A stretch of DNA of 64,000 nt, taken from positions 18,851 through 82,850 of the forward strand of contig JAFGDT010000041.1 in assembly GCA_016931965.1 (NCBI GenBank), written 5' to 3'. Position 1 is the first letter of the stretch, and every line of letters begins with the position of its first letter. Made by a program: the position numbers and the translations under genes. Source of the DNA: a bacterium. GTDB lineage: Bacteria; Zhuqueibacterota; QNDG01; DSAB01. The notes under the pieces are model-generated. The model had not been told where the DNA came from and ran no database searches. It saw only the letters and a program-made list of their open reading frames with translations. Below, in pieces: positions 4,072 to 43,200 of the stretch.

Positions 4072-4107
4072 TGCAAAGCTGAGCAGAAAGGTAGCCTTGT
4101 TTATAAT

Positions 4108-6156
4108 ATGGAAGGAGATCTTGTGGAAAATCAAGAAAAACCGGAAGGCGCATTTATCCTATGGAAATGGGAAGATCAAGAAATTGACAATCTGAAACGG
4201 TTAAGACGGCAGCTGCTCGATATTCATTCAAAGGGATTTTCCGGTGTTCTGGCAAGCCTTGGATCGACCCGATACGAATTCATTGATCCCAAGGTATTGC
4301 GTGCGGTGGCACAAGTGAGCCAATGGGCTAAAAAACGCAATATCGCATTCTGGTTTGAAACAGATCCACGACAAGCTTCACGGTCTTTAATTTCAAAAAC
4401 AGGTGAATGTACCCAAAATCTGATCATCACAAAAAGACGGAACGATGGTCTTAAGGAAACTTATCCTCATATCAGTAAAATAAAAAAGAATCGCTTCGAA
4501 TTGCGGTTCGAATATCCGAAGACCCAGTCTTCATCCCTGCTGCAGGAAAGATCCATTCATTTTGAACCGATAGGACTTGAAAAAACATACTTATTCCAGA
4601 TGAAAGGGAGTACAGTCATCAGTGATTCGGTTCGAGACATCACATCGGAAAGCCACTTCTTTGCAAACATTGAAAAAGGCTATGTGGATATATTTGGAGA
4701 TGTGCAGACTGCGGAAGATGAGGAATGGTGGGCCATGGCATTTCCCAAATTCAATACAAATGTATATGATTATGCAGGATTTGAAAGCAACAACCTTCTC
4801 TGCCTTTTCGCCGAGAACCTCTTTGACGCCTGCACCCATCTCAGTGGTATAGCATGGGGAGAAAATGGAACAGGATACGTCGTCGATATGGGTCGGTTCC
4901 CCGTCAGTCTTTCCCTGTATAACAGCTTTCGTGCAGAATACCGATACGATCTCCGGAATGTCCTTTATGGTTTGGTACTGAATCTGGACAGTGGACTTCA
5001 CATACAGATCCGGTCGGATTATTACAATCTGCTGATGCATACCGTATACAATGCCGAGAAAGAGTTCTATCAGACCATTCACGGTTTTTTTGGAAACTTG
5101 GATGTGATTGTTCACCATCACTTTCGATCTACAGTGATACAGATGGACAACTTAGTCCGGGGCAGCATCGATCCCTGGAAAAGTCTGAACTATGTTGGCT
5201 CGCCGATTGTTGAAATAGAACCTGTTGATCATCTGAAAAAAAACAGTTACCATCTCATCCCAACCATTCTGATAACAAAAAGCCTCGGTGTTTACTCAAA
5301 TACGCAGCGTGTTTTTTGTGATACCCAGCACAGTCATTATGCAAGTGAAGGATTGAACTACCTCATGGATCTGATGGCGCTCTTTTCCATTCGTTTATTG
5401 ATCAAAACCAATGGGAATAACATGGAGACTCACAAAAAAATCCCTATAAAAAAAGACAACCTGAGTCACATGAGCTGGAATGACATGGAAGGGATCAATC
5501 GTAAAATTAACCATATCCGGAACATTACGGGCTATAAATTTCCCGAAGCAAACATTGTCCTGGTCTATCCGATCGAAACGATCATGGCTATGGGATCACA
5601 AGATGCTGAAAAAATAATTGCGTCGGTCAATCAATTGATTACCCGCCTTGTCTTGGCGGGCATTCAACTGGATGTCATTTCTCCTGTCTTATTGAAGGAA
5701 TGCCATCTTTTTCCCGATGGAATAAGCATCCGTTCAAGGACATACGAATCGATCATTTTCCCTTACCCCGAGGTTGTCGATCATGAAGTTCTCGAAATCA
5801 TTTCCCTGATTGCCAGATCCAATATCCCCTTTTCCATTGGTGGTTGTGTCCCCCGCTATACCTCTTCAGGGAAACGGGTGCCTCACATATTCCCGTTAAC
5901 ATTTGATCCTCAGGATGAGGATTTATCGCCTCTTCGGAAAAAAGGGATAAAAAGATTGATGATTTTACCTGAAAACGGTCTCGGAACAATGATCTATCAG
6001 GGAGAGGATATCCTTTTTCTTATCTGCCCAAAACAGGCTGGTGAATCAGTCAATGGTCGAGTCCGATTTCAAAACATTTCTTTCTCAGTTCCTAAAAGTC
6101 AGTCACTCGTTATTTTTCGGAAACAAAAATATAAAAAGGTAGAACAGATCGTTTAA
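4108..6156 (+). CDS. Hypothetical cytoplasmic protein of 682 aa with no domain I can recognise
   Basis: A long uninterrupted ORF 36 nt downstream of the tricorn gene on the same strand. It lacks a signal peptide and its codon composition resembles its neighbours. Confidence 0.6.
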   Translation: MEGDLVENQEKPEGAFILWKWEDQEIDNLKRLRRQLLDIHSKGFSGVLASLGSTRYEFIDPKVLRAVAQVSQWAKKRNIAFWFETDPRQASRSLISKTGECTQNLIITKRRNDGLKETYPHISKIKKNRFELRFEYPKTQSSSLLQERSIHFEPIGLEKTYLFQMKGSTVISDSVRDITSESHFFANIEKGYVDIFGDVQTAEDEEWWAMAFPKFNTNVYDYAGFESNNLLCLFAENLFDACTHLSGIAWGENGTGYVVDMGRFPVSLSLYNSFRAEYRYDLRNVLYGLVLNLDSGLHIQIRSDYYNLLMHTVYNAEKEFYQTIHGFFGNLDVIVHHHFRSTVIQMDNLVRGSIDPWKSLNYVGSPIVEIEPVDHLKKNSYHLIPTILITKSLGVYSNTQRVFCDTQHSHYASEGLNYLMDLMALFSIRLLIKTNGNNMETHKKIPIKKDNLSHMSWNDMEGINRKINHIRNITGYKFPEANIVLVYPIETIMAMGSQDAEKIIASVNQLITRLVLAGIQLDVISPVLLKECHLFPDGISIRSRTYESIIFPYPEVVDHEVLEIISLIARSNIPFSIGGCVPRYTSSGKRVPHIFPLTFDPQDEDLSPLRKKGIKRLMILPENGLGTMIYQGEDILFLICPKQAGESVNGRVRFQNISFSVPKSQSLVIFRKQKYKKVEQIV

Positions 6157-6171
6157 GGCACAATCAATCGA

Positions 6172-7023
6172 TTATTTTTCTTCAGGCCACTCCGTAACTT
6201 GGATATAACACCCTTCGGGATCAGTGATTCCTTTCAAACAGTAAAGACTGCGGTATCTTTTTTCTTCTCTATCTCTTCGATCGGTCACATCAGCCAACCC
6301 TCCCCACGGACACGACAGACAGTGCTCAGGCTGTTTTTGAAAGGATGTTGCCGTTTTCAGGGACACCAACGCCTGATCACGATGATAAGAGACTGTAGAG
6401 CCCTGTTTCACGATCTCTATATTTCTGGGTTTGTGGATGACAATTCTGCCCCGGTCTTCACGGATTTCCCCTTCCATTTCCACCACCATTCTGGATGCAA
6501 ACTGAAACGTCTGCATCATTTTTTCTGAAATACGAACATAAAAAGTATCATCAAAGGATTCAACGCCGATGAATCCTCTTTTAAATACAAGAAGATAGCC
6601 CCGAAGCTTGATATGGGAGGCTTTATGGCAAAGGACCTGTTCGAACCAGGGTTTGATATAATGAATTTGCCCGCCGAACATTCGCCGCTTATAACGGATA
6701 TTTTCCAACCAGTTTTCGAAATCCTCAAGATCTTCCATAAAACGGCTATATTGATCCTCCGTCAACAACAATCTGGGCTGAAGATGAACCTTCTCTTCAA
6801 TGTAATAGGTGCAGCCTTTACAGTTTTTCCCTATATACTGGTATCGATGAATACACCTGTTCCCTTTTTCCATGAGAATACAATGCCATTTAAAATAGAG
6901 ACACCCTTGAGGGTAACAGTTTTTCTCTTTCATGACATGGAAAACCGAAACTTTTCCCTCAAATCGTTTATGGGCTTCCTGACTGCAACGAAAAACATCG
7001 TCTCTTTTATATTGATTAATCAT
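6172..7023 (-). CDS. Hypothetical Cys/His-rich protein
   Basis: 283-aa ORF with clustered Cys at both ends: CYPQGCLYFKWHC, CIHRYQYIGKNCKGC, and C-terminal CLSCPWGG...CLKG...C. It looks like a metal-binding protein. No family recognised. Confidence 0.5.
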   Translation of the reverse strand: MINQYKRDDVFRCSQEAHKRFEGKVSVFHVMKEKNCYPQGCLYFKWHCILMEKGNRCIHRYQYIGKNCKGCTYYIEEKVHLQPRLLLTEDQYSRFMEDLEDFENWLENIRYKRRMFGGQIHYIKPWFEQVLCHKASHIKLRGYLLVFKRGFIGVESFDDTFYVRISEKMMQTFQFASRMVVEMEGEIREDRGRIVIHKPRNIEIVKQGSTVSYHRDQALVSLKTATSFQKQPEHCLSCPWGGLADVTDRRDREEKRYRSLYCLKGITDPEGCYIQVTEWPEEK

Positions 7024-7056
7024 AATGGATTGAACGGCAGTGGATGAGGAGATGTT

Positions 7057-7941
7057 TCACCCATCATTTTTGTGATCTGGAGGATCGCTGATATGGAGTT
7101 TATTTCTTCTCGCTTCCAGCAGATGATTTTCTTCTCCTCTATATTCAGCCACAGTCTGAATGTTCACATGATACTGATTGGCCAGAGCAAAAAGGGGTTC
7201 AATATGATGCTTCCAATGCATATCTCTCAACAAATGATGGTCAATGATGATCGTTGTTACTTTTGTTTTTTCAATCATCCTTTTAATATGGGTTAGCGAT
7301 TTCTTCAGTATCTTTTGTAAATCATCCTTTTTGTGATTGATAGTGAAGAGGCCGTCTAAATAGAGAAACAATGGATTTTGTGATAAAATAAATTCCAACT
7401 GGTCTTCTCGACAGGCTCCTTCGATGTCCGAGCTGAAAAGAAATGATTGATCATCTTCATGAATGGCCATCTGAATGACAAATCCATGGTCTTCTGTTAG
7501 ACCATGAGGTACCGGTGGAGAAAAAATGATCCGTGTATTTTTTAATGATACTGTTTTTTCATCTACATAATGAATCTCTCTGGGTATGCCTTGTATCTTT
7601 TTTAAAAAGGCGAAAGCACGGTTTCTTTGGGAAAGGTTTATCTTCTGGTTTGGATTTTTAAGCAAGAGCAATTTATTGCGATAAAGCTCCCCATTATCGG
7701 GAATAAAATGGCTTAAATGAAAATGGGTGATAACAACAACATCAGCCAAATGAGCAAAAAGGTGAAGCCGTTCTCTCTGTTTTTTGAAAGCCCACTTTTC
7801 AAATGGATGGGGCGGTAGTCCGTATCGATTTTGTACCAGTGTGACACCCGGATCAACCAAAATGTTAAGGTCTCGGGTCTCGATAAAAACAGCCATTGAA
7901 CGGCTGCCCATCGATTCGGCTGCAATGGGTGTAATTTTCAT
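7057..7941 (-). CDS. MBL-fold metallo-hydrolase, archaeal-type UPF0282/COG2248-like
   Basis: N-terminus MKITPIAAESMGSRSMAVFIE..LVDPGV..RYGLPPHP plus ITHFHLSHF matches the COG2248 pattern ESLGVRS ... DPGV ... GLPPHP ... HYHYDH. Confidence 0.55.
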   Translation of the reverse strand: MKITPIAAESMGSRSMAVFIETRDLNILVDPGVTLVQNRYGLPPHPFEKWAFKKQRERLHLFAHLADVVVITHFHLSHFIPDNGELYRNKLLLLKNPNQKINLSQRNRAFAFLKKIQGIPREIHYVDEKTVSLKNTRIIFSPPVPHGLTEDHGFVIQMAIHEDDQSFLFSSDIEGACREDQLEFILSQNPLFLYLDGLFTINHKKDDLQKILKKSLTHIKRMIEKTKVTTIIIDHHLLRDMHWKHHIEPLFALANQYHVNIQTVAEYRGEENHLLEARRNKLHISDPPDHKNDG

Positions 7942-8039
7942 TTACGATCACACTTCAAACAAAAACGGTCACACCACATTACTCTATATCACAATCTGCT
8001 TAAATCAATTCAATAGATGCCTGTTGAGGATTGCTATCG

Positions 8040-9446
8040 TTACAAATGGCTCAAGGGATGTTTGCCCAAGGGATAGACATTGAATCCAATTTCAAATAGT
8101 TTGCGGTGATCCAGTATATTACGGCCGTCAAAAATGAATGGCGGTTTCTCCATATGTTGGAATATGCTTTGATAATCTAAAGTTTTGTATGCCTCCCATT
8201 CCGTCACGACGGCGATCGCATGTGCGTTGACTGCAGCTTGATAAGGATCTGCCTGGAATTCGAGATTTCCGTCAAGTCCTTCCAATTCGAGCCTGGCATT
8301 CTCGATGGCCTTGGGATCTGTGATGACAACACAGGCTCTTTCCTCTAATAATTTTTTCGTAATATAAATGGCCGGAGATTCACGGGTATCACCTGTATTG
8401 GCCTTAAACGCAAATCCAAACAGTGCAATGCGTTTATTGGCTATGGTGTTAAAGAGTGCTTTGTTAATGGTTTGAACAAACCGGCTTTCCTGATATTCGT
8501 TGATCGAAACAACCCTCTCCCAATATTCAGCCACCTCGCTTAGACCATAGGATTCACAAATATAAACCAGATTGAGTATATCCTTTTTAAAACAGGAACC
8601 GCCAAAACCGACACTTGCATTCAGAAATTTTTCCCCGATACGGCTGTCTTTCCCAACCGCATGAGCCACTTCACCGATATCGGCTTCGGTTTTTTCACAT
8701 AAAGCAGAAATGCTGTTGATTGAGGAAATACGTTGCGCAAGAAACGCATTGGCAACCAGTTTGGATAATTCCGAGCTCCAGATATTGCTGGTGATAATTC
8801 TCTCCCGCGGCACCCAATTCTCATAAATCTCGACAATTTCACGACACGCATTTTGCCCTTCCTCTGTCTGTTGGGCACCAATCAGAACCCTGTCCGGATT
8901 TTCAAGATCGTTGATAGCCGATCCTTCAGCCAAAAACTCAGGGTTGGATACCACTTCAAAGTGAATGCCTTTATCATTGGAATTGAGAATTCGCTCCATG
9001 GCACTTGCCGTTCTTACAGGCAGGGTGCTTTTTTCGACGATGATTTTATCCGATTCAGAAACCCTTAATATATCTCTTGCCGTCTTTTCCCAATATTGCA
9101 GATCGGCGGTTTTCCCGGCTCCTTCCCCAAACAATTTGGTCGGTGTATTGACCGATACAAAAATAATATCCGCTTTTCTAATATTCTCTTCAATTGCCGC
9201 AGAATAAAAAAGATTTTTCCCTCTTGCACTTTTTACCACATCCAAAAGACCCGGTTCATAAATGGGGAGATTATCCGATTGCCAGCGTTTGACCTTTTCT
9301 TGATTAATATCCACAACGATAACCAGATACTGGGGACAGCGGGCAGCAATCACGGCCATTGTGGCGCCACCGACATACCCGGCACCAATACATAAAATGT
9401 GTTTTTTAAATTTCTTTGTATTGATCCGTTCATTTGATCTCTTCAT
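8040..9446 (-). CDS. ugd: UDP-glucose 6-dehydrogenase
   Basis: N-terminal Rossmann motif ILCIGAGYVGG, catalytic-Cys region GFGGSCFKKD, and the typical length of 468 aa. Confidence 0.85.
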   Translation of the reverse strand: MKRSNERINTKKFKKHILCIGAGYVGGATMAVIAARCPQYLVIVVDINQEKVKRWQSDNLPIYEPGLLDVVKSARGKNLFYSAAIEENIRKADIIFVSVNTPTKLFGEGAGKTADLQYWEKTARDILRVSESDKIIVEKSTLPVRTASAMERILNSNDKGIHFEVVSNPEFLAEGSAINDLENPDRVLIGAQQTEEGQNACREIVEIYENWVPRERIITSNIWSSELSKLVANAFLAQRISSINSISALCEKTEADIGEVAHAVGKDSRIGEKFLNASVGFGGSCFKKDILNLVYICESYGLSEVAEYWERVVSINEYQESRFVQTINKALFNTIANKRIALFGFAFKANTGDTRESPAIYITKKLLEERACVVITDPKAIENARLELEGLDGNLEFQADPYQAAVNAHAIAVVTEWEAYKTLDYQSIFQHMEKPPFIFDGRNILDHRKLFEIGFNVYPLGKHPLSHL

Positions 9447-9629
9447 TCATGATCTCCTTATCAAGATCAACACACCCTCATGCAATCAGAATGTTGCTGT
9501 TCGCGTTGTATCGATGATTCATCTCCATTTAAAGGATCGTTTTTCTACTGCCACTGGCGATGATTTCTCAAAACGGGAACAAGAATCACACCATAAAGTA
9601 AGTACTTTTTTCAGTCGCAGCCATATCGA

Positions 9630-12039
<2,410 letters not shown>

Positions 12040-12081
12040 AAGCGAACTCCTCTGTATGAACCTGAATTAGAATACACATAA

Positions 12082-13149
12082 TCATTGAGATTCTTTTAAC
12101 AATTGTTCCTTTAAAAAATCGATATTCTCTATGGTTGTTGGATCCACACCATAGAGAATGGCCAGATAATAACTCACCCAGTCGCCAAAAAAGACGAGAT
12201 AGAGCAATTGGCTCAATAGATCCTCTCCTTCTGCCACAACATCCAGAATCTGACCCCTATTCTGGTGGACCAGCTCCTTCATGATATCCATCCGCAATTT
12301 CAGACGGGGATGATCCGAAGGCAACCGTAATAGAACCATGACCAAATCGGGGAAATAGCGTTTTGTCCCTGGAAGAGAATCCCAGGGAACAATCTCATTG
12401 TGATTCATCTCGGGGATGGGCAGATAGAATGCGTGTATTTTACTGTTTTCATTGAGCTGCGTCTTCCAGCGAAATCCAACGGCTTCCAAACGATCAATAG
12501 AAGAATAAATGAGGGGAATTTTGTTTTGGAGTTTTTTGGCTAAAACAAGAGGCTGATTTTTAGAATCCGTCATCTTTTTCCAGTCCTTCCCATTTTGTTC
12601 TAAAAAGGTGATCGCATCGGTTACCTTTTGATCATCCGTGTGACCGAAACCCAATCGATTAAAAATTGAGAGAAGAATGCCGATTCCGTATCCAAGAGCC
12701 GCTCTCGGTGGATACCCCTTTGGTAATAGAATCAAGGGATACTTTTTCTGTTCTGCTACCTTTTGAAGGTGTCCGCCCGAAGTTATGCAAATAATGAAGC
12801 AACCCTTTCTCTGAGCCCCTTCCAGTGCAGAAAGTGTCTCTTCGGTATTCCCCGAATAACTCGAAGCGATAAAGAGTGTCTGTGTATCGCAAAAAGAGGG
12901 TACCCGGTAGCTTCGATTGACGATAAACGGTATGGTGAGATGATCTCCAGACAGGGACCGAACAATATCTCCCCCGATGGCCGATCCACCCATACCCGAT
13001 AGAACAATATGTTTCAATCCCGTGATTTTTTGGAGTTCAAGATTATCTTTACCCATCTTCCATCCGCGAAAAAGCTGTATTGGAAATTCCAGAATTTTCT
13101 GAAACATACCGGATTGATCGATTGAAGTCATGCGTTTTTCAGAGAGCAT
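12082..13149 (-). CDS. Bifunctional phosphoglucose/phosphomannose isomerase, SIS-domain and archaeal-type
   Basis: SIS motif VLSGMGGSAIGGDIV, and about 355 aa as for the TIGR02128-like PGI/PMI family. Confidence 0.65.
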   Translation of the reverse strand: MLSEKRMTSIDQSGMFQKILEFPIQLFRGWKMGKDNLELQKITGLKHIVLSGMGGSAIGGDIVRSLSGDHLTIPFIVNRSYRVPSFCDTQTLFIASSYSGNTEETLSALEGAQRKGCFIICITSGGHLQKVAEQKKYPLILLPKGYPPRAALGYGIGILLSIFNRLGFGHTDDQKVTDAITFLEQNGKDWKKMTDSKNQPLVLAKKLQNKIPLIYSSIDRLEAVGFRWKTQLNENSKIHAFYLPIPEMNHNEIVPWDSLPGTKRYFPDLVMVLLRLPSDHPRLKLRMDIMKELVHQNRGQILDVVAEGEDLLSQLLYLVFFGDWVSYYLAILYGVDPTTIENIDFLKEQLLKESQ

Positions 13150-36509: not shown

Positions 36510-36590
36510 ATTCTCAACCCTATTAGCCAGGTATAAAAAAACGGAACACGATATAAACATCGCATCCCGTCCCAGACATTTTCCATTCCG

Positions 36591-36842
36591 CTATGATGAT
36601 TTCTTTTCTTCCTTCTTTCTCTGGTCTGATTGATCCTCATTCTTCTTGATCTTATACTTTTTCATATACTTCTCAACCCGACCAGCCGAATCAACCAATT
36701 TTTGTTTTCCTGTAAAAAATGGATGACAGTTCGAGCAAATCTCAACATGCATATCGCCCACAGTACTTCGTGTTTGAAATGTATTCCCGCACGCACAGGA
36801 TACGGTTCCCATTTTTAACTCAGGATGTATCTTTTTTTTCAA
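36591..36842 (-). CDS. rpmE: 50S ribosomal protein L31
   Basis: [10 protein letters not shown]...CACGNTF..RST...[13 protein letters not shown], the L31 Zn-ribbon. The true start is the TTG at 36842, not the upstream TTG at 36857 that the ORF track used. Confidence 0.85.
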
Positions 36843-36850
36843 TCTTGAAA

Positions 36851-36855
36851 CCTCC
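36851..36855 (-). promoter_or_regulatory. Shine-Dalgarno (GGAGG) for rpmE
   Basis: Minus strand reads TTGGAGGTTTCAAGATTGAAAAAAAAG, so GGAGG sits 8 nt upstream of the TTG start. Confidence 0.6.
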
Positions 36856-37252
36856 AATCAATCGAATCTTTTTCAAACTTTAAAGATAATAAAACAAACG
36901 ACTCAAAGCAAGAAAAAATTCAAGTTTACAATTCATTTTTATCTTCTTTACTCCCAGCAGCACAGCTACAAGACGACTGCGGGTGGCAACCATTTTCTCG
37001 ATATCGGCAAAATGGTCAGTTACTTTTTCTTTCTCGTTCCAGTGTTCTACGTTGGAACGAGAAGAGTACTCCTCTCCACTCAAGTTGATGGCATGCTTGA
37101 AGCAGTGCAATGATTGCCCTGGATTCCCTTGTCCAGGGCAAATAACTATGGGGCTTCTGACCCATAAGACAATACAGCATCAAGTTTTTGAATTTGGGGA
37201 GGATACCTTGTTGATCGTTCATGGGGGCTTTTTGCCGCTGAACGAATTATTT

Positions 37253-37276
37253 GGAGGGCTGAGCCCTCCCTTTTTT
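37253..37276 (+). terminator. Plus-strand intrinsic terminator with no upstream plus-strand gene, so possibly the end of an ncRNA
   Basis: GGAGGGC-tga-GCCCTCC forms a 6-7-bp GC stem, followed by C and then TTTTTT. Confidence 0.45.
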
Positions 37277-37483
37277 ACGCCTAGGGGTATAGGAGCCTGT
37301 CCAAGAACCCCAAAAAAGCGTTATAATATCATAGATTTTTGAATATATAAAGATTTCATATTAATTGTTACCAAAAATATTCCAATTTTTTCTAGTTCTT
37401 AGACAAGCTCCATAGCCCATTGGCGATCAGAACTTGAGTCTGGTGCAACGCTTATTCGTTTAGGCTTGTTTTATAATATTTTA

Positions 37484-38278
37484 TCATTCTGTGTATTTGA
37501 ATATATAACCTTTATGCGAATTTCGTTTTCCGTGCAAACAACTATTGATATGACTGAAATCTAAATTCAAATACCTAGCACATTGTCTTTGTGTAAGCCA
37601 CTCACCTATATATTTTTCATTTTTAAAAACTAGAAAAGATTTAGCTCCGCGTTGAATTGAATGAATCTTTCTATTTTGGGGGTCAGATAAATACTTACGC
37701 ATTTCTTCTGCTGTTTTCTCTCTTTCAGATTCTTTATTATATCGCATTAACATAAATTTTGAATGTTCTTTTGCTTGTTCAGGATTATCTTGGTGAGCTT
37801 TTTTATTTGCTAAAGATTGCATTCGCCTATTTTCTGGATTTTGGAATAACTTTTTCCTTATTTCGGAATTTCTTTTACACCATTCTTCGTCATACTTAAG
37901 ACCATAAGTTCCTTCCCCACCTAAAGTCAGATTGTAACCATTTGTAAAACTATCATAAAATCGGATATATTTTTTTTCTAGTTCACAGAGTTCTTTCCAT
38001 TCTGTAGCTCTGTCAATTATTTCCCAACTGATATTTTTAGAATCATATTTTCTTATTGCATCGTGAAATGGTGTCCTTGAACCCTTTTTTACACTTCGTA
38101 AATGAATTCGGATTCTTTCTTTTAGCGTTGTTATTGTAATACCAATATAGATTTTTCCACTGGGTGAAGTGGCTTTATATACTATTCCATTAATTGATTT
38201 TTTCTTTTCCATAAATTTACTTACAAGCCTAACGATTATTTCTGCGGCGCGCCAAACCGACGGGTGACCATTATTCAT
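37484..38278 (-). CDS. GIY-YIG homing endonuclease of I-TevI/Seg-like architecture: GIY-YIG domain, NUMOD3-like repeats and a NUMOD1-like HTH
   Basis: GIY-YIG core NGIVYKATSPSGKIYIGITITTLKERIRIH...FHDAIRKY...LEKKYIRFYDS..NGYNLTLGGEG. C-terminal tail CARYLNLDFSHINSCLHGKRNSHKGYIFKY matches the ...NG+RK.A.GY.W.Y DNA-binding motif of homing endonucleases. The start may be the internal ATG at 38212 (MEKKK). Confidence 0.75.
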   Translation of the reverse strand: MNNGHPSVWRAAEIIVRLVSKFMEKKKSINGIVYKATSPSGKIYIGITITTLKERIRIHLRSVKKGSRTPFHDAIRKYDSKNISWEIIDRATEWKELCELEKKYIRFYDSFTNGYNLTLGGEGTYGLKYDEEWCKRNSEIRKKLFQNPENRRMQSLANKKAHQDNPEQAKEHSKFMLMRYNKESEREKTAEEMRKYLSDPQNRKIHSIQRGAKSFLVFKNEKYIGEWLTQRQCARYLNLDFSHINSCLHGKRNSHKGYIFKYTE

Positions 38279-38287
38279 TTTCGTGTG

Positions 38288-38307
38288 GCACTGCTTTTAA
38301 GCAGTGC
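38288..38307. repeat. Perfect 20-bp palindrome GCACTGCTT-TT-AAGCAGTGC, 10 bp upstream of the GIY-YIG start codon
   Basis: Read directly from the sequence. A degenerate copy GCATGCTTGAAGCAGTGC lies at 37091..37108, and a related GCTTTTAAAAGC palindrome at 39759..39770. Confidence 0.6.
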
Positions 38308-38405
38308 TTTAATTATTTGTTCATTCAACACGATATTTTACAAATATCACACTGACCAGGGCACCCTGCGAATTGATGCGGTAGTTATGTAAAGTTATTT
38401 GACTA

Positions 38406-39500
38406 TCAATCAAGCAACTCCTTGAATATTTTATAATCATGATCCGAAAGACTGAATTTGGCATTAAGCTTATTCAGCATTTGGCCCGAGTTGAACCAGG
38501 ATATGAATGTATCGACATTGCCGGCAAACCCTCTTGCACATTTGTCAGATATCGTCTGGTAATCCTGAACTTCTGGGAACAATTTTAAAGTCTGATGAGT
38601 TGCAGATGGGAAATCGAAACCTTGCTTCATGTAATACAAAACACTATAAATATGCCGCAGACGAATTTCTAGATGACTTTCAAATGGAATATTGGCAATT
38701 TTTTCTGACGCTGATAAATTTTCAAATGATTGATGATCAAGTCTTTGTGTTTGATGATGGATTATTCTTCTTCTGGGTGTTCTTTCCGGTTTTTCGACCG
38801 CGCCAATTTGTTGTTTTATTTCTTCTCTCTCTGAAATCTCAATGTGAACTTGCTGCAGTGCCTCAGAGAAAGTCTCGTCATCGGTATCTGGAAATTCATT
38901 TCTCAGGTAACCCACTACTTTCTGTTTTACTTCGAATGAAGTTAATTGTTGAATTAGTGCGATGACTTCCCGTTTTTTGTTAAATTTATCGAGCTTGTTT
39001 TTTAAATATTCATTATACCTATTTTCTTCTATACTACTCTTGTTGAAAATACCTATAAAATTTATGCCTTGCTCTGATCCTTTTTCAAAGTCAATTTTTT
39101 CTAACAATATTGGGTCGGTGTGAGGGTTCAATGGTCCATCATAAAAAATTCTAAGATCTGGTCCAATTAAAAACCCGAAATCGGATTTCATTTGCCTCAT
39201 ATAGGATCTCAGTTGTCCTATTACATAATCACGTTTTATATCCTCTGCAGGCCTCTTGACCTCCACGACAATTAGACATTTCCTATCATTACCATAAATA
39301 ATTAAATCCGGACGAAGCGTGCCCTCACGCCCAAGTTGCACTTTCGGTTGTCTTTCTATCTCATTCTTATATTCCCGCCAACCGAGGACCTCAATGGCTC
39401 TAACCACTTGATTTTCAAAATCCCTTTCAGACAAATTTTGCTTGATATTTTCCGATAACAGAAAACAAATCTCATCCCATTTTTCAGAATTACAATTCAT
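38406..39500 (-). CDS. PD-(D/E)xK nuclease-fold protein with an HsdR-N-like N-terminal domain and an unrecognised C-terminal domain of about 240 aa
   Basis: GTLRPDLIIYGNDRKCLIVVEVKRP matches the D...(E/D)xK motif of the N-terminal domain of type I restriction R subunits (PF13588-like). The rest has no match I recognise. The gene is AT-rich like the adjacent GIY-YIG gene. Confidence 0.6.
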   Translation of the reverse strand: MNCNSEKWDEICFLLSENIKQNLSERDFENQVVRAIEVLGWREYKNEIERQPKVQLGREGTLRPDLIIYGNDRKCLIVVEVKRPAEDIKRDYVIGQLRSYMRQMKSDFGFLIGPDLRIFYDGPLNPHTDPILLEKIDFEKGSEQGINFIGIFNKSSIEENRYNEYLKNKLDKFNKKREVIALIQQLTSFEVKQKVVGYLRNEFPDTDDETFSEALQQVHIEISEREEIKQQIGAVEKPERTPRRRIIHHQTQRLDHQSFENLSASEKIANIPFESHLEIRLRHIYSVLYYMKQGFDFPSATHQTLKLFPEVQDYQTISDKCARGFAGNVDTFISWFNSGQMLNKLNAKFSLSDHDYKIFKELLD

Positions 39501-39672
39501 AATTTGCCTCTGATTCTCTCACATAACACAGGTTTATCCACCCTATATGCATTACATATGCTTTTCAAAATAATCTTTGAATTTGAATACAATCATTTCC
39601 TTCAAATCAAGACACATGGAGCCAACTTGCCCCCTTCATCTATTTCTTTGATAGCCATTTTTCTGTTGAAAT

Positions 39673-39780
39673 GCAGACAAGAATCGGGAATCGATTGAAA
39701 GAATATTTTATTCCGCATGATTTAATACACAAAAATCAGAAAATCAATCAAAACTTCCGCTTTTAAAAGCAGACAAGAAT
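39673..39780. repeat. Two direct copies of GCAGACAAGAAT, 96 bp apart, upstream of the PD-(D/E)xK gene. The second abuts the palindrome GCTTTTAAAAGC at 39759..39770
   Basis: Read from the sequence: 39673..39684 and 39769..39780, with a 12-bp perfect palindrome at 39759..39770. Confidence 0.45.
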
Positions 39781-39970
39781 GCACAATAGTCATTCTCCCT
39801 CTAAAAGCAAAGTCAATGGCTTTAAAAATAACGACTGGAAATGGTTATCTGTATCTTAAGCCCGTTTGATTTTACAAATTGTGAAATTTTTACCTTGACA
39901 TTCGATAAAACCTTTTATATTATGTAATATAAATTCTTTAAATCCATAAAATCAAAAAGAGCCGATTTGA

Positions 39971-40264
39971 ATGAACACCCATCAGAAAGATAAAATGAAA
40001 AGCAGCGATTATCTCTCAGAAGAAGAACAGCAAGAGAGCAAGCAACAACTGTTTTTCTACAATATATGTCTCATTGCGGGCAGTGTCCTTATCCTATTTT
40101 CTCTCATTTATCTTTTACAACATTTAGGCAACAATTCGGTTTACTGGATTGGATTTTTGGGGTTATTCTGTGCAATTCCTTTCTTCATCATATACGGAAT
40201 CGGCATGAAATCGATCAAAAACAAAACGAATTCAAACCCCAAAAACCAGAAACATAAAGCATAG
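39971..40264 (+). CDS. Small membrane protein (97 aa, two transmembrane segments), hypothetical
   Basis: Acidic N-terminal SEEEQQESKQQ stretch, then two hydrophobic helices and a basic C-tail. Confidence 0.45.
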   Translation: MNTHQKDKMKSSDYLSEEEQQESKQQLFFYNICLIAGSVLILFSLIYLLQHLGNNSVYWIGFLGLFCAIPFFIIYGIGMKSIKNKTNSNPKNQKHKA

Positions 40265-40440
40265 CAGCAACCGATTACAGATCATTATCAAGACACACAT
40301 TGTCGACGATACATCCAAGTTTCAATAGACTGTCCTTTTATAACAAGGGTGATGAACCATACAAGGAGAAAAACAAACACCTGGATGGATAATCCATTTT
40401 TTTAAGTAAACACCTGATCTATAATAAAGGGTATAAAACA

Positions 40441-40968
40441 ATGGCATTAGTACCCTGCCGAGAATGTCAGAAAAAAATCAGTGAAAACGCCGTAAGCTGT
40501 CCAGAATGTGGAGCCCCTTTTCCCTCGAGAAGAGAATGGAGGGGGCCAGGATTCGAATGGAAATCCCAAAAAACACTGTTCGGTCATCCGCTGATCCATA
40601 TTGCATTTGGTCGAAATGAAAAAGGAAAATTGAGGGTCGCCAAGGGATTCATTGCCATCGGGCAATTTGCCGTCGGTGCGTTTACAGTCGCCCAATTTGG
40701 CATCGGACTCATTTTCGGTTTGGGTCAATTTATTTTTGGCCTGACGGCAGTGGCTCAGATCGCAATTACCGCACTGTTTGGATGCGGCCAGGTTGCCATC
40801 GGATATGTGGCTGTGGGCCAGCTGGTTTTTGGTTACTACGGATTGGCCCAGGTCGGTATTGCCAAATATCTCTGGTCATTTGGAAGAAAAGATCCCGAAG
40901 CCCTGGACTTTTTCAGCCGATTAGGCGAAAAAATTGGATTGTCCCTGGACCAATACTTCAGAAAATAA
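40441..40968 (+). CDS. Zinc-ribbon protein with a repetitive Gly-rich hydrophobic region of about six 11-residue repeats
   Basis: N-terminal CRECQ...x13...CPECG zinc ribbon. Then IAIGQFAVGAF/TVAQFGIGLIF/GLGQFIFGLTA/VAQIAITALFG/CGQVAIGYVAV/GQLVFGYYGLA with period 11. Confidence 0.6.
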   Translation: MALVPCRECQKKISENAVSCPECGAPFPSRREWRGPGFEWKSQKTLFGHPLIHIAFGRNEKGKLRVAKGFIAIGQFAVGAFTVAQFGIGLIFGLGQFIFGLTAVAQIAITALFGCGQVAIGYVAVGQLVFGYYGLAQVGIAKYLWSFGRKDPEALDFFSRLGEKIGLSLDQYFRK

Positions 40969-41004: not shown

Positions 41005-43200
41005 ATGCAGAGATTACTGCTGGTATCCAACCGATTGCCCATTACAATAGAAAAACAAAAAGGGGCCATGCACTTTCACCAGAGTGTCGGTGGACTGGCT
41101 ACCGGTCTCGGTTCCTTCTATAAAAAGTATGACAGCATGTGGATCGGCTGGTGCGGGCTGGCTTCCAACAACCTGGATCACCAGACACGAAGAAACATCG
41201 AATCGGAACTGCTGACCCAGCACCACAGTTATCCCATTTTTCTGTCCAAATACGATATTAAGATGTTTTACGCGAGCTTTTGTAACAAAACACTCTGGCC
41301 TCTTTTCCACTATTTCACGGATTATACGATATTTGACCACGAATCATGGAAAGCCTATCAAAATATCAACAAACTCTTCCTTCACGACATCTTGCGCATT
41401 GCTCGACCGGACGACATTATCTGGATCCACGACTACCATTTGATGCTGCTACCACAAATGATCCGCGAGCATCTACCCCACACACAGATTGGATTTTTCC
41501 TCCACATTCCATTTCCGTCATTCGAAATTTTTCGTTTACTCCCCTGGAGGAAAGAAATCATAGAGGGACTTTTGGGATCTGATCTGATTGGATTTCATAC
41601 TTACGATTATGTCCGCCATTTTTTCAGCAGCGTTCGCCGCTTATTGGGATACGACAACACATTCGGTCAAATTATGGTGAATCATCGCATCGTCAAAGCG
41701 GATGCTTTTCCGATGGGCATTGATTATGACCGCTTTTCCAAAGGAACTTCCGACCCGGACTGGTTAAAAGAAATCAATAAAAGATGTTCGGACTGCAAAA
41801 TTATTCTTTCGGTCGATCGGCTGGACTACACAAAAGGGATCCCAGAAAGGCTGGAGGCATTCGATTATTTTCTTGAAGAATATCCTGAGTACCGGAGTCA
41901 GGTCACATTGATTATGATCGCCACCCCTTCACGGATGGGGGTTGAACAATACCAACATTTAAAACAACGTGTCGACGAACTGGTCGGCCGCATCAACGGC
42001 AAACACGGCACGATCGACTGGACTCCTGTGACCTATCTCTACCGTTCCCTGTCATTTGAAAAAATTGTGACATTGTACAACATTGCCGATGTGGCCATGG
42101 TCACACCGCTCAGAGATGGCATGAATCTGATAGCTAAAGAGTATCTTGCAGCTCGAAAAAACAACAGGGGTGTTTTGGTGCTCAGCGAGATGGCCGGAGC
42201 CAAAAGTGAACTGATCGAGGCCATCATTGTCAATCCACACAACAAACAAGAAATAGCCGAATCATTGAAAGCAGCATTAACCATGGCGGATGAAGAACAG
42301 ATAGAGCGAAATACATTGATGAAAGACCGTTTAAAACGGTACGATATTACAACATGGGCCAATGACTTTATGGGGAGTTTGGCCAGGGTAAGAAATCAAC
42401 AAGAAGAGATTGGAATCAAAATACTCACAAAAAATAAACGGAAAAATCTATTAAAGAAGTATCAGGCTAGCAATAATCGATTAATCTTTTTGGATTATGA
42501 CGGCACGCTTGTTCCCTTTGTCGACAAACCCGAATTGGCTGAACCCGATGAAGAAATTTCGGCTCTGCTTAAAATTTTGAACAAAGATTCAAAAAACGAG
42601 GTAATTCTTGTCAGCGGAAGAGACAGACACACGCTGGACAACTGGTTCGGCCATCTGAAAGTGAGTTTATCGGCTGAACATGGTGTATGGCTGAAAGAGA
42701 AAGGAAGCTCGTGGCATTTGATTGAACCAATTAAAAGTGAATGGAAGGGTGAAATCAAACCCATTCTTGAAGCTTACGTCGATAAAACACCGGGTGCCAG
42801 AATCGAAGAGAAATCATACTCCCTTGTATGGCACTACAGGAGGGTTCACCCGGAACTGGGAACCATCAGAGCCATAGAATTAAAAGAAGACTTATTGCAT
42901 CTCACAGCCAACCTGAATCTGGTGGTGTTGGAAGGCAGCAAAGTCATCGAAATCAAAAATGGAGGAATCAACAAAGGGCGCGCAGCCCTGCACTGGATAC
43001 CCAAGAAAGAGTGGGATTTCATCCTGGCGATAGGTGACGACTGGACGGATGAAGATCTTTTTGAAGCCCTTCCGGAATCGGCCTATTCGATCAAGGTTGG
43101 ATTAACCTTTTCAAAATCTAGATTCTGTTTGACAAACCACCTGGAGGTCAGGGAACTTTTGCAGCAGTTCAGCAGTATTCAAAAACCAGTTCCAAAATAG
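41005..43200 (+). CDS. otsA: Bifunctional trehalose-6-phosphate synthase (GT20) and trehalose-6-phosphate phosphatase (HAD) fusion
   Basis: N-terminal LLLVSNRLPIT... and GFFLHIPFPS GT20 motifs. The C-terminal 250 aa carry the HAD motif LIFLDYDGTL and GDDWTDEDLF. Confidence 0.85.
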   Translation: MQRLLLVSNRLPITIEKQKGAMHFHQSVGGLATGLGSFYKKYDSMWIGWCGLASNNLDHQTRRNIESELLTQHHSYPIFLSKYDIKMFYASFCNKTLWPLFHYFTDYTIFDHESWKAYQNINKLFLHDILRIARPDDIIWIHDYHLMLLPQMIREHLPHTQIGFFLHIPFPSFEIFRLLPWRKEIIEGLLGSDLIGFHTYDYVRHFFSSVRRLLGYDNTFGQIMVNHRIVKADAFPMGIDYDRFSKGTSDPDWLKEINKRCSDCKIILSVDRLDYTKGIPERLEAFDYFLEEYPEYRSQVTLIMIATPSRMGVEQYQHLKQRVDELVGRINGKHGTIDWTPVTYLYRSLSFEKIVTLYNIADVAMVTPLRDGMNLIAKEYLAARKNNRGVLVLSEMAGAKSELIEAIIVNPHNKQEIAESLKAALTMADEEQIERNTLMKDRLKRYDITTWANDFMGSLARVRNQQEEIGIKILTKNKRKNLLKKYQASNNRLIFLDYDGTLVPFVDKPELAEPDEEISALLKILNKDSKNEVILVSGRDRHTLDNWFGHLKVSLSAEHGVWLKEKGSSWHLIEPIKSEWKGEIKPILEAYVDKTPGARIEEKSYSLVWHYRRVHPELGTIRAIELKEDLLHLTANLNLVVLEGSKVIEIKNGGINKGRAALHWIPKKEWDFILAIGDDWTDEDLFEALPESAYSIKVGLTFSKSRFCLTNHLEVRELLQQFSSIQKPVPK

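Follow-up and report, generated by a model that had tools for sequence, protein, structure and literature searches.

Two nuclease genes beside rpmE in a KSB1-like bacterium are probably integron-type cassettes stranded outside any integron

What are two adjacent nuclease genes doing in a housekeeping region of a bacterial chromosome, and do they belong together? The question was raised by a stretch of 64,000 nucleotides (hereafter the window) of contig JAFGDT010000041.1 (positions 18,851 to 82,850, forward strand; assembly GCA_016931965.1) from a KSB1-like bacterium, in which a block at 36858–39970 carries the genes for a restriction-like PD-(D/E)xK nuclease, here called ORF2 (open reading frame 2), and for a GIY-YIG homing-type endonuclease. 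The initial annotation had described the gene content correctly, with rpmE on one side, a membrane protein and otsAB on the other and the two nucleases between them, and had read the pair as a candidate unit that would fit either an islet of the homing-endonuclease type or a small locus for defence or addiction. This unity was not borne out, as each gene proved to be a separate module with cassette boundaries of its own. We consider it probable that the block consists of two independent, co-oriented integron-type cassettes lying outside any integron, a two-cassette remnant that resembles a group of clustered attC sites without an integron integrase (CALIN). Two such cassettes, integrase-free and in a housekeeping region, represent a type of event already described, rather than a novel system of two nucleases. 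Mobility of the integron-cassette type, visible here in GTTRRRY/RYYYAAC cores and at related loci in attC arrays, had been overlooked.

In the Stokes/Hall description of an integrated cassette, the first six bases are the end of the cassette's own attC site, and the inverse core downstream is hence complementary to the cassette's own 5' end. DNA homology to ORF2 was found at 14 loci of other genomes (Desulfatitalea, Desulfosarcina BuS5 and unassigned metagenome contigs), at 75–87% nucleotide identity and only over 38366/38373–39526/39531, that is, the gene with a short flank on either side (upstream about 27 bp, downstream about 35 bp). The homology of the GIY-YIG gene, also found at 14 loci, was confined to 37483–38235, over which locus L188 is 87% identical in nucleotides. 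Flank alignments placed the start of the shared ORF2 sequence at GTTATGTGAG (39527) and that of the shared GIY-YIG sequence at (TC)GTTAGGC (38233), with G/TTAGGC at 38233/38232; upstream of both points, the contexts are unrelated to one another. At the other ends, ACATAAC (38390–38384), 3' of the ORF2 stop codon, is the inverse of the 5' GTTATGT of the same gene at seven of seven positions, and GCCTAAAC (37465–37458), 3' of the GIY-YIG stop codon, reads GCCTAA(A)C and matches its own GTTAGGC at 7/7 with one A inserted. The string AAAACAAGCCTAA(A)C is common to the GIY-YIG cassettes of the window and of L188, and in the latter GCCTAAC is base-paired to GTTAGGC within a folded attC. In the case of ORF2, what the window shares with the attC of the other cassettes of this gene ends at 38366–38373, just past the inverse core (R''). 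Both genes of the window therefore have a boundary at the G/TT of a GTTRRRY-type core and an inverse core complementary to their own 5' end. Cassette 1, with ORF2, would run from 39526 to 38233 on the minus strand, and cassette 2, with the GIY-YIG gene, from 38232 to about 37450–37300 on the same strand (Table 1).

Table 1. Features of the block and its surroundings, with the attC-like sites of one related locus
Feature	Position	Strand	Details
rpmE	36591–36842	-	TTG start, GGAGG ahead of it
rpmE promoter and leader	36843–36917	-	Last stretch colinear with L189 (9662–9737)
Left part of 626-bp flank	36918–37300		GC 0.454, host-like
Structured 320-nt element	36960–37280	+	Intrinsic terminator at 3' end (37253–37269 plus T run, to 37277); host-like GC; outside the cassettes
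Putative remnant attC of GIY-YIG cassette	37302–37465	-	R''-like GCCTAAAC, then AT-rich DNA with AAC...GTT inverted repeat (TGTCTAAGAAC ... GTTCTTGGACA)
GIY-YIG homing-type endonuclease gene	37484–38212	-	242 aa; I-TevI-like catalytic domain, NUMOD-like linker, I-HmuI-like C-terminal DNA-binding module; GC 0.309
Inter-cassette spacer at ORF2 attC position	38227–38390	-	164 nt; R'' ACATAAC (38390–38384) to R' GTTAGGC (38233–38227); hairpin degenerate/non-canonical
ORF2	38406–39500	-	364 aa; HsdR-N/type IIG-like PD-(D/E)xK domain aa 1–225, disordered basic linker aa 228–262, helical C-terminal domain aa 262–364; GC 0.364
GTTATGT core, 5' boundary of ORF2 cassette	39521–39527	-	R'-type; crossover G/TT at 39527/39526; homology begins 39526–39531
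Right spacer	39501–39970		GC 0.313
AT-rich spacer upstream of ORF2 cassette	39528–39970		GC 0.31; divergent promoter-like sites
Membrane ORF	39971–40264	+	97 aa, two predicted transmembrane helices; near-consensus promoter 39895–39923 upstream; GC 0.361
Zinc-ribbon membrane protein gene	40441–40968	+	
otsA/otsB fusion	41005–43200	+	
attC-like sites of locus L085 (positions on that locus)	2710–2769, 4094–4157, 4797–4860, 5352–5420, 6560–6634, 7228–7300, 7712–7786, 12330–12389		

The attC sites themselves were found at related loci. At L085, at least eight co-oriented cassettes, among them an ORF2 homologue (88% identical), have each ORF followed by an imperfect hairpin of 60–75 nt that runs from ...AAC to GTT..., and in five of seven of these cassettes the 5' GTTNNNN perfectly complements the cassette's own inverse core. 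A first, strict attC scanner, which required 6/7 core complementarity and pairing in the minimum free energy (MFE) structure, was discarded because it missed sites evident by eye. Twelve sites were aligned instead, with the hairpin structure supplied from single-sequence folds and tested by pair counts; RNAalifold returned no structure on this 12-site alignment. In it, 77.5% of the cells were paired, against 24–36% with slid partners, compensatory changes were present in 11 of the 23 pairs, and neither the observed covariation score nor the percentage paired was reached by any of 500 shuffles. The covariance model made from the alignment (R1) also picked up sites on which it had not been trained, directly 3' of genes beside the ORF2 homologue on the chromosome of Desulfosarcina sp. 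BuS5 (L003; CP087952.1). There, attC-like sites lie behind each of the three gene modules that come next, one of which is a reverse-oriented ParE/Phd pair. In the stretch 8733–10918 of this locus, the ORF2 homologue is 5'-truncated (305 aa, aligned from residue 63) and adjoins an insertion sequence (IS) gene of the DDE_Tnp_1 type, and insertion of the IS probably inactivated that copy.

Homologues of the GIY-YIG gene lie in similar surroundings. At L175, the homologue is preceded by an attC of the ORF2-cassette class, with the loop motif TCCGCTGCGCTNCAT in common, and at L188 the homologue (protein 89% identical) is bracketed by attC sites of about 185 nt whose GCCTAAC/GTTAGGC cores are paired in the predicted fold. 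Gene-limited homology, cores, inverse cores and attC arrays elsewhere make up the signature of integron cassettes. Defence genes are plentiful among the cargo of these arrays. The L085 array includes a complete Gabija system, GajA and GajB (7712–12389, about 4.5 kb; PADLOC E-values of 1e-204 and 9e-215), which, being placed between two attC-like sites, is itself an integron-type cassette of the same array as the ORF2 homologue. The array also carries PDC-S33 and PDC-S57-like genes, and after the ORF2 homologue it encodes, at 6661–7233, a 190-aa protein of the T5orf172/GIY-YIG superfamily with an N-terminal helix-turn-helix and a weak PDC-S57 match. In arrays of this kind, nucleases appear to be frequent cargo. 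At 5408–5441 of the same locus, the ORF2 cassette has its 5' untranslated start in two tandem copies (GTTATGTGAGAAAAT TATGTGAGAAAATC), right at the recombination core.

Several observations weigh against this interpretation. The core GTTATGT departs from GTTRRRY at one position. The 164-nt spacer between ORF2 and the GIY-YIG gene folds no better than shuffled sequences (z -1.2), with R'' and R' unpaired in its MFE structure, and the region 3' of the GIY-YIG gene holds a modest AAC...GTT inverted repeat (fold z -2.2). A folded attC, an imperfect hairpin of 57–141 nt 3' of the ORF, is thus seen at the related loci and not in the window, where R1 found no attC (best E 0.65) and the scores of a custom attC scanner stayed within the shuffle range. 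R1, which stood in for the IntegronFinder model, detects the arrays of L085, L003 and L175 and none in the window, the criterion for a CALIN being two or more attC sites; its training set was narrow, with 12 sites from one or two attC classes, so that a different class could be missed. No integron integrase (IntI) was seen on any fetched contig, and the arrays are accordingly attC clusters without a demonstrated IntI. The divergent genes beside the L175 and L085 arrays were considered as integrases and rejected, as they encode a DDE transposase and a sigma factor. As to function, the PADLOC matches of ORF2 are weak (E 3e-5) and confined to the nuclease fold, and a role of its family in phage defence is a prediction. 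If the block does consist of two cassettes, their attC hairpins would have decayed in the window, and with degenerate hairpins and no integrase nearby the cassettes have probably lost their mobility.

As had been proposed, the block has the look of foreign DNA acquired by horizontal transfer. Its GC content is 0.351, compared with 0.450 for the remainder of the window, and it overlaps the lowest-GC 3113-bp stretch of the whole 64 kb (37301–40413, 0.341; the next non-overlapping minimum is 0.407). The true extent of the low-GC tract is about 37301–40440, which takes in the 97-aa membrane ORF and leaves out 36918–37300. The non-coding flanks of 626 bp and 470 bp are right for the ORF calls used, and no integrase or transposase is found among the ORFs of the block. 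The hairpins noticed earlier are real, and the palindromes said to be shared proved to be short repeats at chance level.

The locus was then compared with relatives. On the left of the block, rpmE is the first gene in the minus-strand run rpmE-DUF1385-prfA-carA-carB; an exact-sequence look-up of its product gave no match, perhaps because the reading began at the upstream TTG at 36857 instead of 36842. With the DUF1385 protein as query, the closest species-representative genome, a KSB1 metagenome-assembled genome (MAG), is only 63% identical, and the JGI metagenomes gave a single 81% contig, which begins inside the DUF1385 gene and leaves the junction uncovered. Of the relatives whose contigs span it, the nearest is L189, a 66-kb contig from the protein search (DUF1385 81% identical), which is colinear with the window over an epimerase gene, carB, carA, prfA, DUF1385 and rpmE. 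In blastn, similarity covers 36535–36917, through the rpmE promoter, whose promoter-like TTGCTT-17-TATCTT aligns with TTGATT-17-TATATT in L189, and ends at 36917. Beyond this point, the adjacency of rpmE and otsAB that the initial annotation had proposed to look for in relatives was not seen. Upstream of rpmE, L189 has rpmB, a major facilitator superfamily (MFS) transporter gene and further genes up to PriA, none of which occurs anywhere in the window; otsAB, the membrane ORFs, ORF2 and the GIY-YIG gene are all absent from L189 within 10 kb. The possibility that relatives hold the same genes here at normal GC is thereby answered in the negative, and ORF2 and the GIY-YIG gene are clearly not ancestral at the rpmE locus. 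In L189, 142 bp separate rpmE from the upstream rpmB, which has a terminator of its own. Because rpmB is missing from the whole 64-kb window, the usual rpmB-rpmE neighbourhood is broken exactly where the foreign DNA starts. Since rpmB and not otsAB lies upstream of rpmE in L189, the block sits at a synteny breakpoint, at about 36917, and it therefore cannot be shown that rpmE and otsAB were parted by a clean insertion.

No integrase was found in about 10 kb on the left side of the block or 17 kb on its right side, and no recombinase among the right-side ORFs checked, from 44.9 to 57.5 kb, nor in the block itself. On the left, back to about 26.8 kb, the syntenic genes are all housekeeping genes in L189. 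The arrangement of a complete integron, with intI, attI and Pc beside the array, was not found. IntI is able to insert cassettes at genomic GWT sites ('attG'), giving rise to CALIN or to single attC sites lacking integron integrases (SALIN) (10.1101/2022.09.11.507474; PMC4889954). The two cassettes may have arrived by such an IntI-mediated insertion at a secondary genomic (GWT) site, within an array that later decayed or was rearranged, or on a larger fragment. Taken further, the last of these routes becomes an alternative in its own right, a generic acquired island at a rearrangement breakpoint, in which a larger foreign fragment with old cassettes entered by homologous or illegitimate recombination without an integrase. 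The synteny breakpoint relative to L189, the degenerate attC hairpins, the lack of an integrase nearby and a low-GC tract that runs past the cassettes to 40440, with an unrelated membrane ORF, all fit such an island. It is compatible with the cassette identity of both genes, however, and differs in the arrival route only; we regard it as unlikely, though still to be reckoned with.

The GIY-YIG gene starts at the ATG at 38212, and its 242-aa product is 100% identical to the deposited protein JW824_04175. It passes the model TIGR01453 ('group I intron endonuclease') with 59.5 bits against a cut-off of 56.05 and also matches PF22083 and PHROG 314 (5e-26). Single-sequence searches of the PDB with the protein gave no match, and a family profile was required. 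The profile of 40 family members matched the catalytic domain of I-TevI (1MK0/1LN0, E 2e-12) as well as the DNA-binding region of I-HmuI (1U3E, E 5e-10). Residues Y12, Y22, G24, R33, E79 and N94 are invariant in the family and align with the catalytic positions of I-TevI. The GIY...YIG motifs, the catalytic Arg, Glu and Asn and the C-terminal DNA-binding module of I-TevI-like enzymes are thus all present, in agreement with the earlier description of a complete GIY-YIG endonuclease. The protein would act like I-TevI, as a monomer whose C-terminal module binds a long site while the tethered catalytic domain cuts nearby. The cassette could be either selfish cargo or another nuclease weapon. A 71%-identical homologue lies at 399–1300 of contig JBFOMZ010000425.1 (L185; GCA_040961635.1), in the same MAG as L189 and at a different locus, and is followed by an attC-like ACCCAAC ... 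GTTGTTC repeat; the GIY-YIG family is therefore also found in relatives of the window's organism, elsewhere in the genome.

Might the GIY-YIG gene have homed to this locus alone, with ORF2 as a bystander or co-converted cargo and the GTTRRRY cores incidental? Its I-TevI/Seg-type free-standing architecture and its phage relatives (30–33% identity over the full length) speak for such an islet, and gene-limited homology is also typical of free-standing homing endonuclease genes (HEGs). We nevertheless think it improbable, because the closest homologues (74–89% in nucleotides) are bracketed by folded attC with perfect GCCTAAC/GTTAGGC or by attC of the class found in other cassettes, both cores are retained in the window copy, and neither a cleavage target nor a HEG-minus allele is known.

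A genuine two-gene system, for defence or addiction, in which the PD-(D/E)xK and GIY-YIG nucleases act together, is less probable still. The two genes are adjacent, co-oriented and 193 bp apart, both nucleases are intact, and the ORF2 homologue of L085 is also followed by a gene of the GIY-YIG superfamily (T5orf172). This last protein, however, is no homologue of the GIY-YIG protein of the window (no tblastn match) and belongs to a cassette of its own behind the attC at 6560–6634. Among 28 other loci, none of the 14 with ORF2 has the GIY-YIG gene and none of the 14 with the GIY-YIG gene has ORF2, and this failure to co-occur already goes most of the way to refuting such a system. The cassette boundary GTTAGGC lies between the two genes of the window, and the downstream neighbours of ORF2 vary in every context. 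That the block is an ancestral segment of the lineage with unusual composition is scarcely credible: purifying selection on both genes would be compatible with it, but the genes are missing here from the closest relative whose contig spans the locus, they are 75–88% identical in nucleotides in Desulfobacterota and other contexts while the housekeeping proteins reach at most 63% in reference genomes, and the GC content is 9–14 points below that of the genome.

Both cassette genes are under purifying selection (dN/dS 0.08–0.12 against homologues; 0.08 for the GIY-YIG gene) and are AT-rich in every host (GC 0.36 for ORF2 and 0.31 for the GIY-YIG gene). The concern that the two ORFs might lack catalytic residues was not confirmed, since both sets are intact and both genes have a dN/dS of about 0.1. 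The match of ORF2 to PF13588 (HSDR_N_2) is marginal. E29, P64, D65, E80 and K82 are invariant across 57 homologues, and the restriction-endonuclease fold is present, as are the catalytic residues E, PD and (D/E)xK. The C-terminal domain (about 100 aa, helical) belongs to no Pfam family and has no strong match in the PDB, and ORF2 thus remains, as first described, an HsdR-N-like PD-(D/E)xK nuclease with its nuclease residues intact. In some homologues, a RAMA (PF18755) or winged-helix domain takes the place of the C-terminal domain, which, being swapped among homologues, behaves as an exchangeable target-recognition module.

Domain searches found no helicase/translocase, methyltransferase (MTase) or target recognition domain (TRD) in ORF2. 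There is no conserved MTase neighbour in six independent contexts and no HsdM/HsdS partner in any context. ORF2 does not qualify as a member of a type I or type IIG restriction-modification (R-M) system, as it lacks the MTase, the specificity function and the helicase motor. It could be a self-sufficient DNA endonuclease, in which the helical C-terminal domain most likely supplies recognition of the DNA target and the N-terminal domain would cut. The enzyme is most likely a type-IV-like or otherwise self-restrained nuclease directed against phages or mobile genetic elements, and because it never occurs with an MTase partner, it most likely tells self from non-self by modified or otherwise foreign DNA.

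The similarity of ORF2 to known defence genes is limited to a weak match to PDC-S02 in PADLOC, over aa 18–106 (the nuclease core) and not full-length, with E-values of 3e-5 to 1e-2. Its homologues form 112 protein clusters, several of them named from Desulfobacterota (Desulfatitalea tepidiphila, Desulfosarcina sp. BuS5, Syntrophobacteraceae). Only one distant relative was found among 2.9 million viral contigs, the plasmid search gave no match, and the exact sequence was not on record in an exact-sequence look-up. The neighbours of the homologues include Gabija, PDC-S33, PDC-S06 (adjoining the homologue in Desulfatitalea), type III R-M systems, toxin-antitoxin modules, IS elements and the integrases of other elements, and the downstream neighbour differs in every context. 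ORF2 is a plausible candidate for a single-gene, stand-alone restriction-like defence nuclease. Of the defence role first suggested for the block, it is this part, concerning one nuclease, that stays plausible; as the property of a two-nuclease unit, it was not supported.

The flanks of the cassettes hold features of their own. To the left, 36960–37280 (MFE -123.8 kcal/mol; z-scores of -6.5 and -5.9 for the plus and minus strands, respectively) is the most structured 320 nt in the 64 kb and the top GC-adjusted structure outlier of 1593 windows, at -4.3 standard deviations. It matched no Rfam family at gathering or permissive thresholds, Rfam and ARAGORN gave no match on the whole block, and no second copy of the element was found. 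A 33-aa hydrophobic ORF (37012–37113) inside the element lacks a Shine-Dalgarno sequence; this and the other ORFs of the left spacer (76 and 68 aa) were rejected as genes or pseudogenes, having no family match and no relatives among 1.84 billion representative proteins. A leader of rpmE was rejected because the conserved rpmE promoter lies downstream of the structured element. Also rejected were a group I or II intron, a miniature inverted-repeat transposable element and an attC, given the lack of an Rfam match and of a second copy and hairpins that run GTT...AAC and not AAC...GTT. The element is a candidate orphan non-coding RNA gene, divergent from rpmE.

To the right, the scan for promoters gave TTGACA-17-TATTAT at 39895–39923 on the plus strand (near-consensus, 11/12) and TTGATT-18-TATATT at 39955–39926 on the minus strand. 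No attC, attI or integrase remnant, no ORF of substance and no R1 match were found in 39528–39970. A 19-nt direct repeat, TTGAAATGCAGACAAGAAT at 39666–39684 and TTTAAAAGCAGACAAGAAT at 39762–39780, is present in this AT-rich spacer with its copies 96 bp apart, and may be an operator, a vestige or a product of chance. The 97-aa membrane ORF lies in the low-GC tract and is part of neither cassette. Its match to DUF3899 is marginal (23.7 bits against a Pfam cut-off of 23.4) and covers the N-terminal half only; PADLOC gave no match and NCBIfam only sub-threshold ones.

With the cassette reading, an apparent two-nuclease island becomes a recognisable event, in which integron cassettes have probably come to be stranded within the core chromosome of a KSB1-like lineage that is poorly sampled. 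A route out of integrons was recently described for cassettes, and the block would be a further example of it from nature. Current understanding is not overturned, and one of the two cargo families is uncharacterised. This ORF2 family is compact, strongly conserved, cassette-borne and almost absent from viral contigs, and it lies repeatedly beside Gabija and other defence genes; it can reasonably be put forward as a candidate defence nuclease that consists of a single gene and recognises its targets in modular fashion. More tentatively, and in our view less likely than not, ORF2 may be the founding member of an uncharacterised family of single-protein, MTase-independent restriction-like defence nucleases, which would combine an HsdR-N core with exchangeable DNA-reading modules (helical, RAMA or winged helix-turn-helix) and spread between phyla as a cassette, while integron cassettes would serve I-TevI-like homing endonucleases as another vehicle, their second, and the 320-nt element would be a new non-coding RNA.

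Among known systems, the closest in arrangement are CALIN and SALIN (Cury et al. 2016, PMC4889954) and the insertion of cassettes by recombination of attC with attG (10.1101/2022.09.11.507474). Like these, the window has promoterless-looking single-gene modules that are co-oriented, bounded by G/TTRRRY and followed by RYYYAAC complementary to their own 5' end, with no integrase nearby and with homologues in covarying attC arrays. Unlike a CALIN, it has no recognisable attC stem-loops, and R1 does not find the two or more attC sites that a covariance model should return for the formal definition. It differs further in that no IntI was seen on the related contigs and in that the host is of a KSB1-like lineage, not a proteobacterium.

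Integron cassettes are known to encode phage-defence systems, with close homologues outside integrons (10.1101/2024.07.02.601719). The phage-defence cassettes described there (BRiCs) and the defence cassettes of sedentary chromosomal integrons resemble that of ORF2, a small single-gene cassette for a predicted nuclease, found in arrays with bona fide defence systems. The likeness is one of description; the main text of that report mentions no nuclease, and ORF2 is only weakly PDC-S02-like.

At the level of the proteins, ORF2 shares its type of nuclease domain with the N-terminal domains of EcoR124I HsdR (2W00), BpuSI (3S1S) and DrdV (7LO5) and with PF13588. It differs from type I HsdR and type IIG enzymes in having no helicase/translocase, MTase or TRD and in carrying instead, through a disordered basic linker, a helical C-terminal domain of about 100 aa. 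The GIY-YIG protein shares its catalytic residues, domain order, size (242 aa) and free-standing, non-intron location with I-TevI/Seg-type homing endonucleases that have an I-HmuI-like NUMOD/helix-turn-helix tail. In contrast to these enzymes, its carrier is an integron cassette of bacterial chromosomes and not a phage genome or a group I intron, and its identity to the phage enzymes is only 30–33%.

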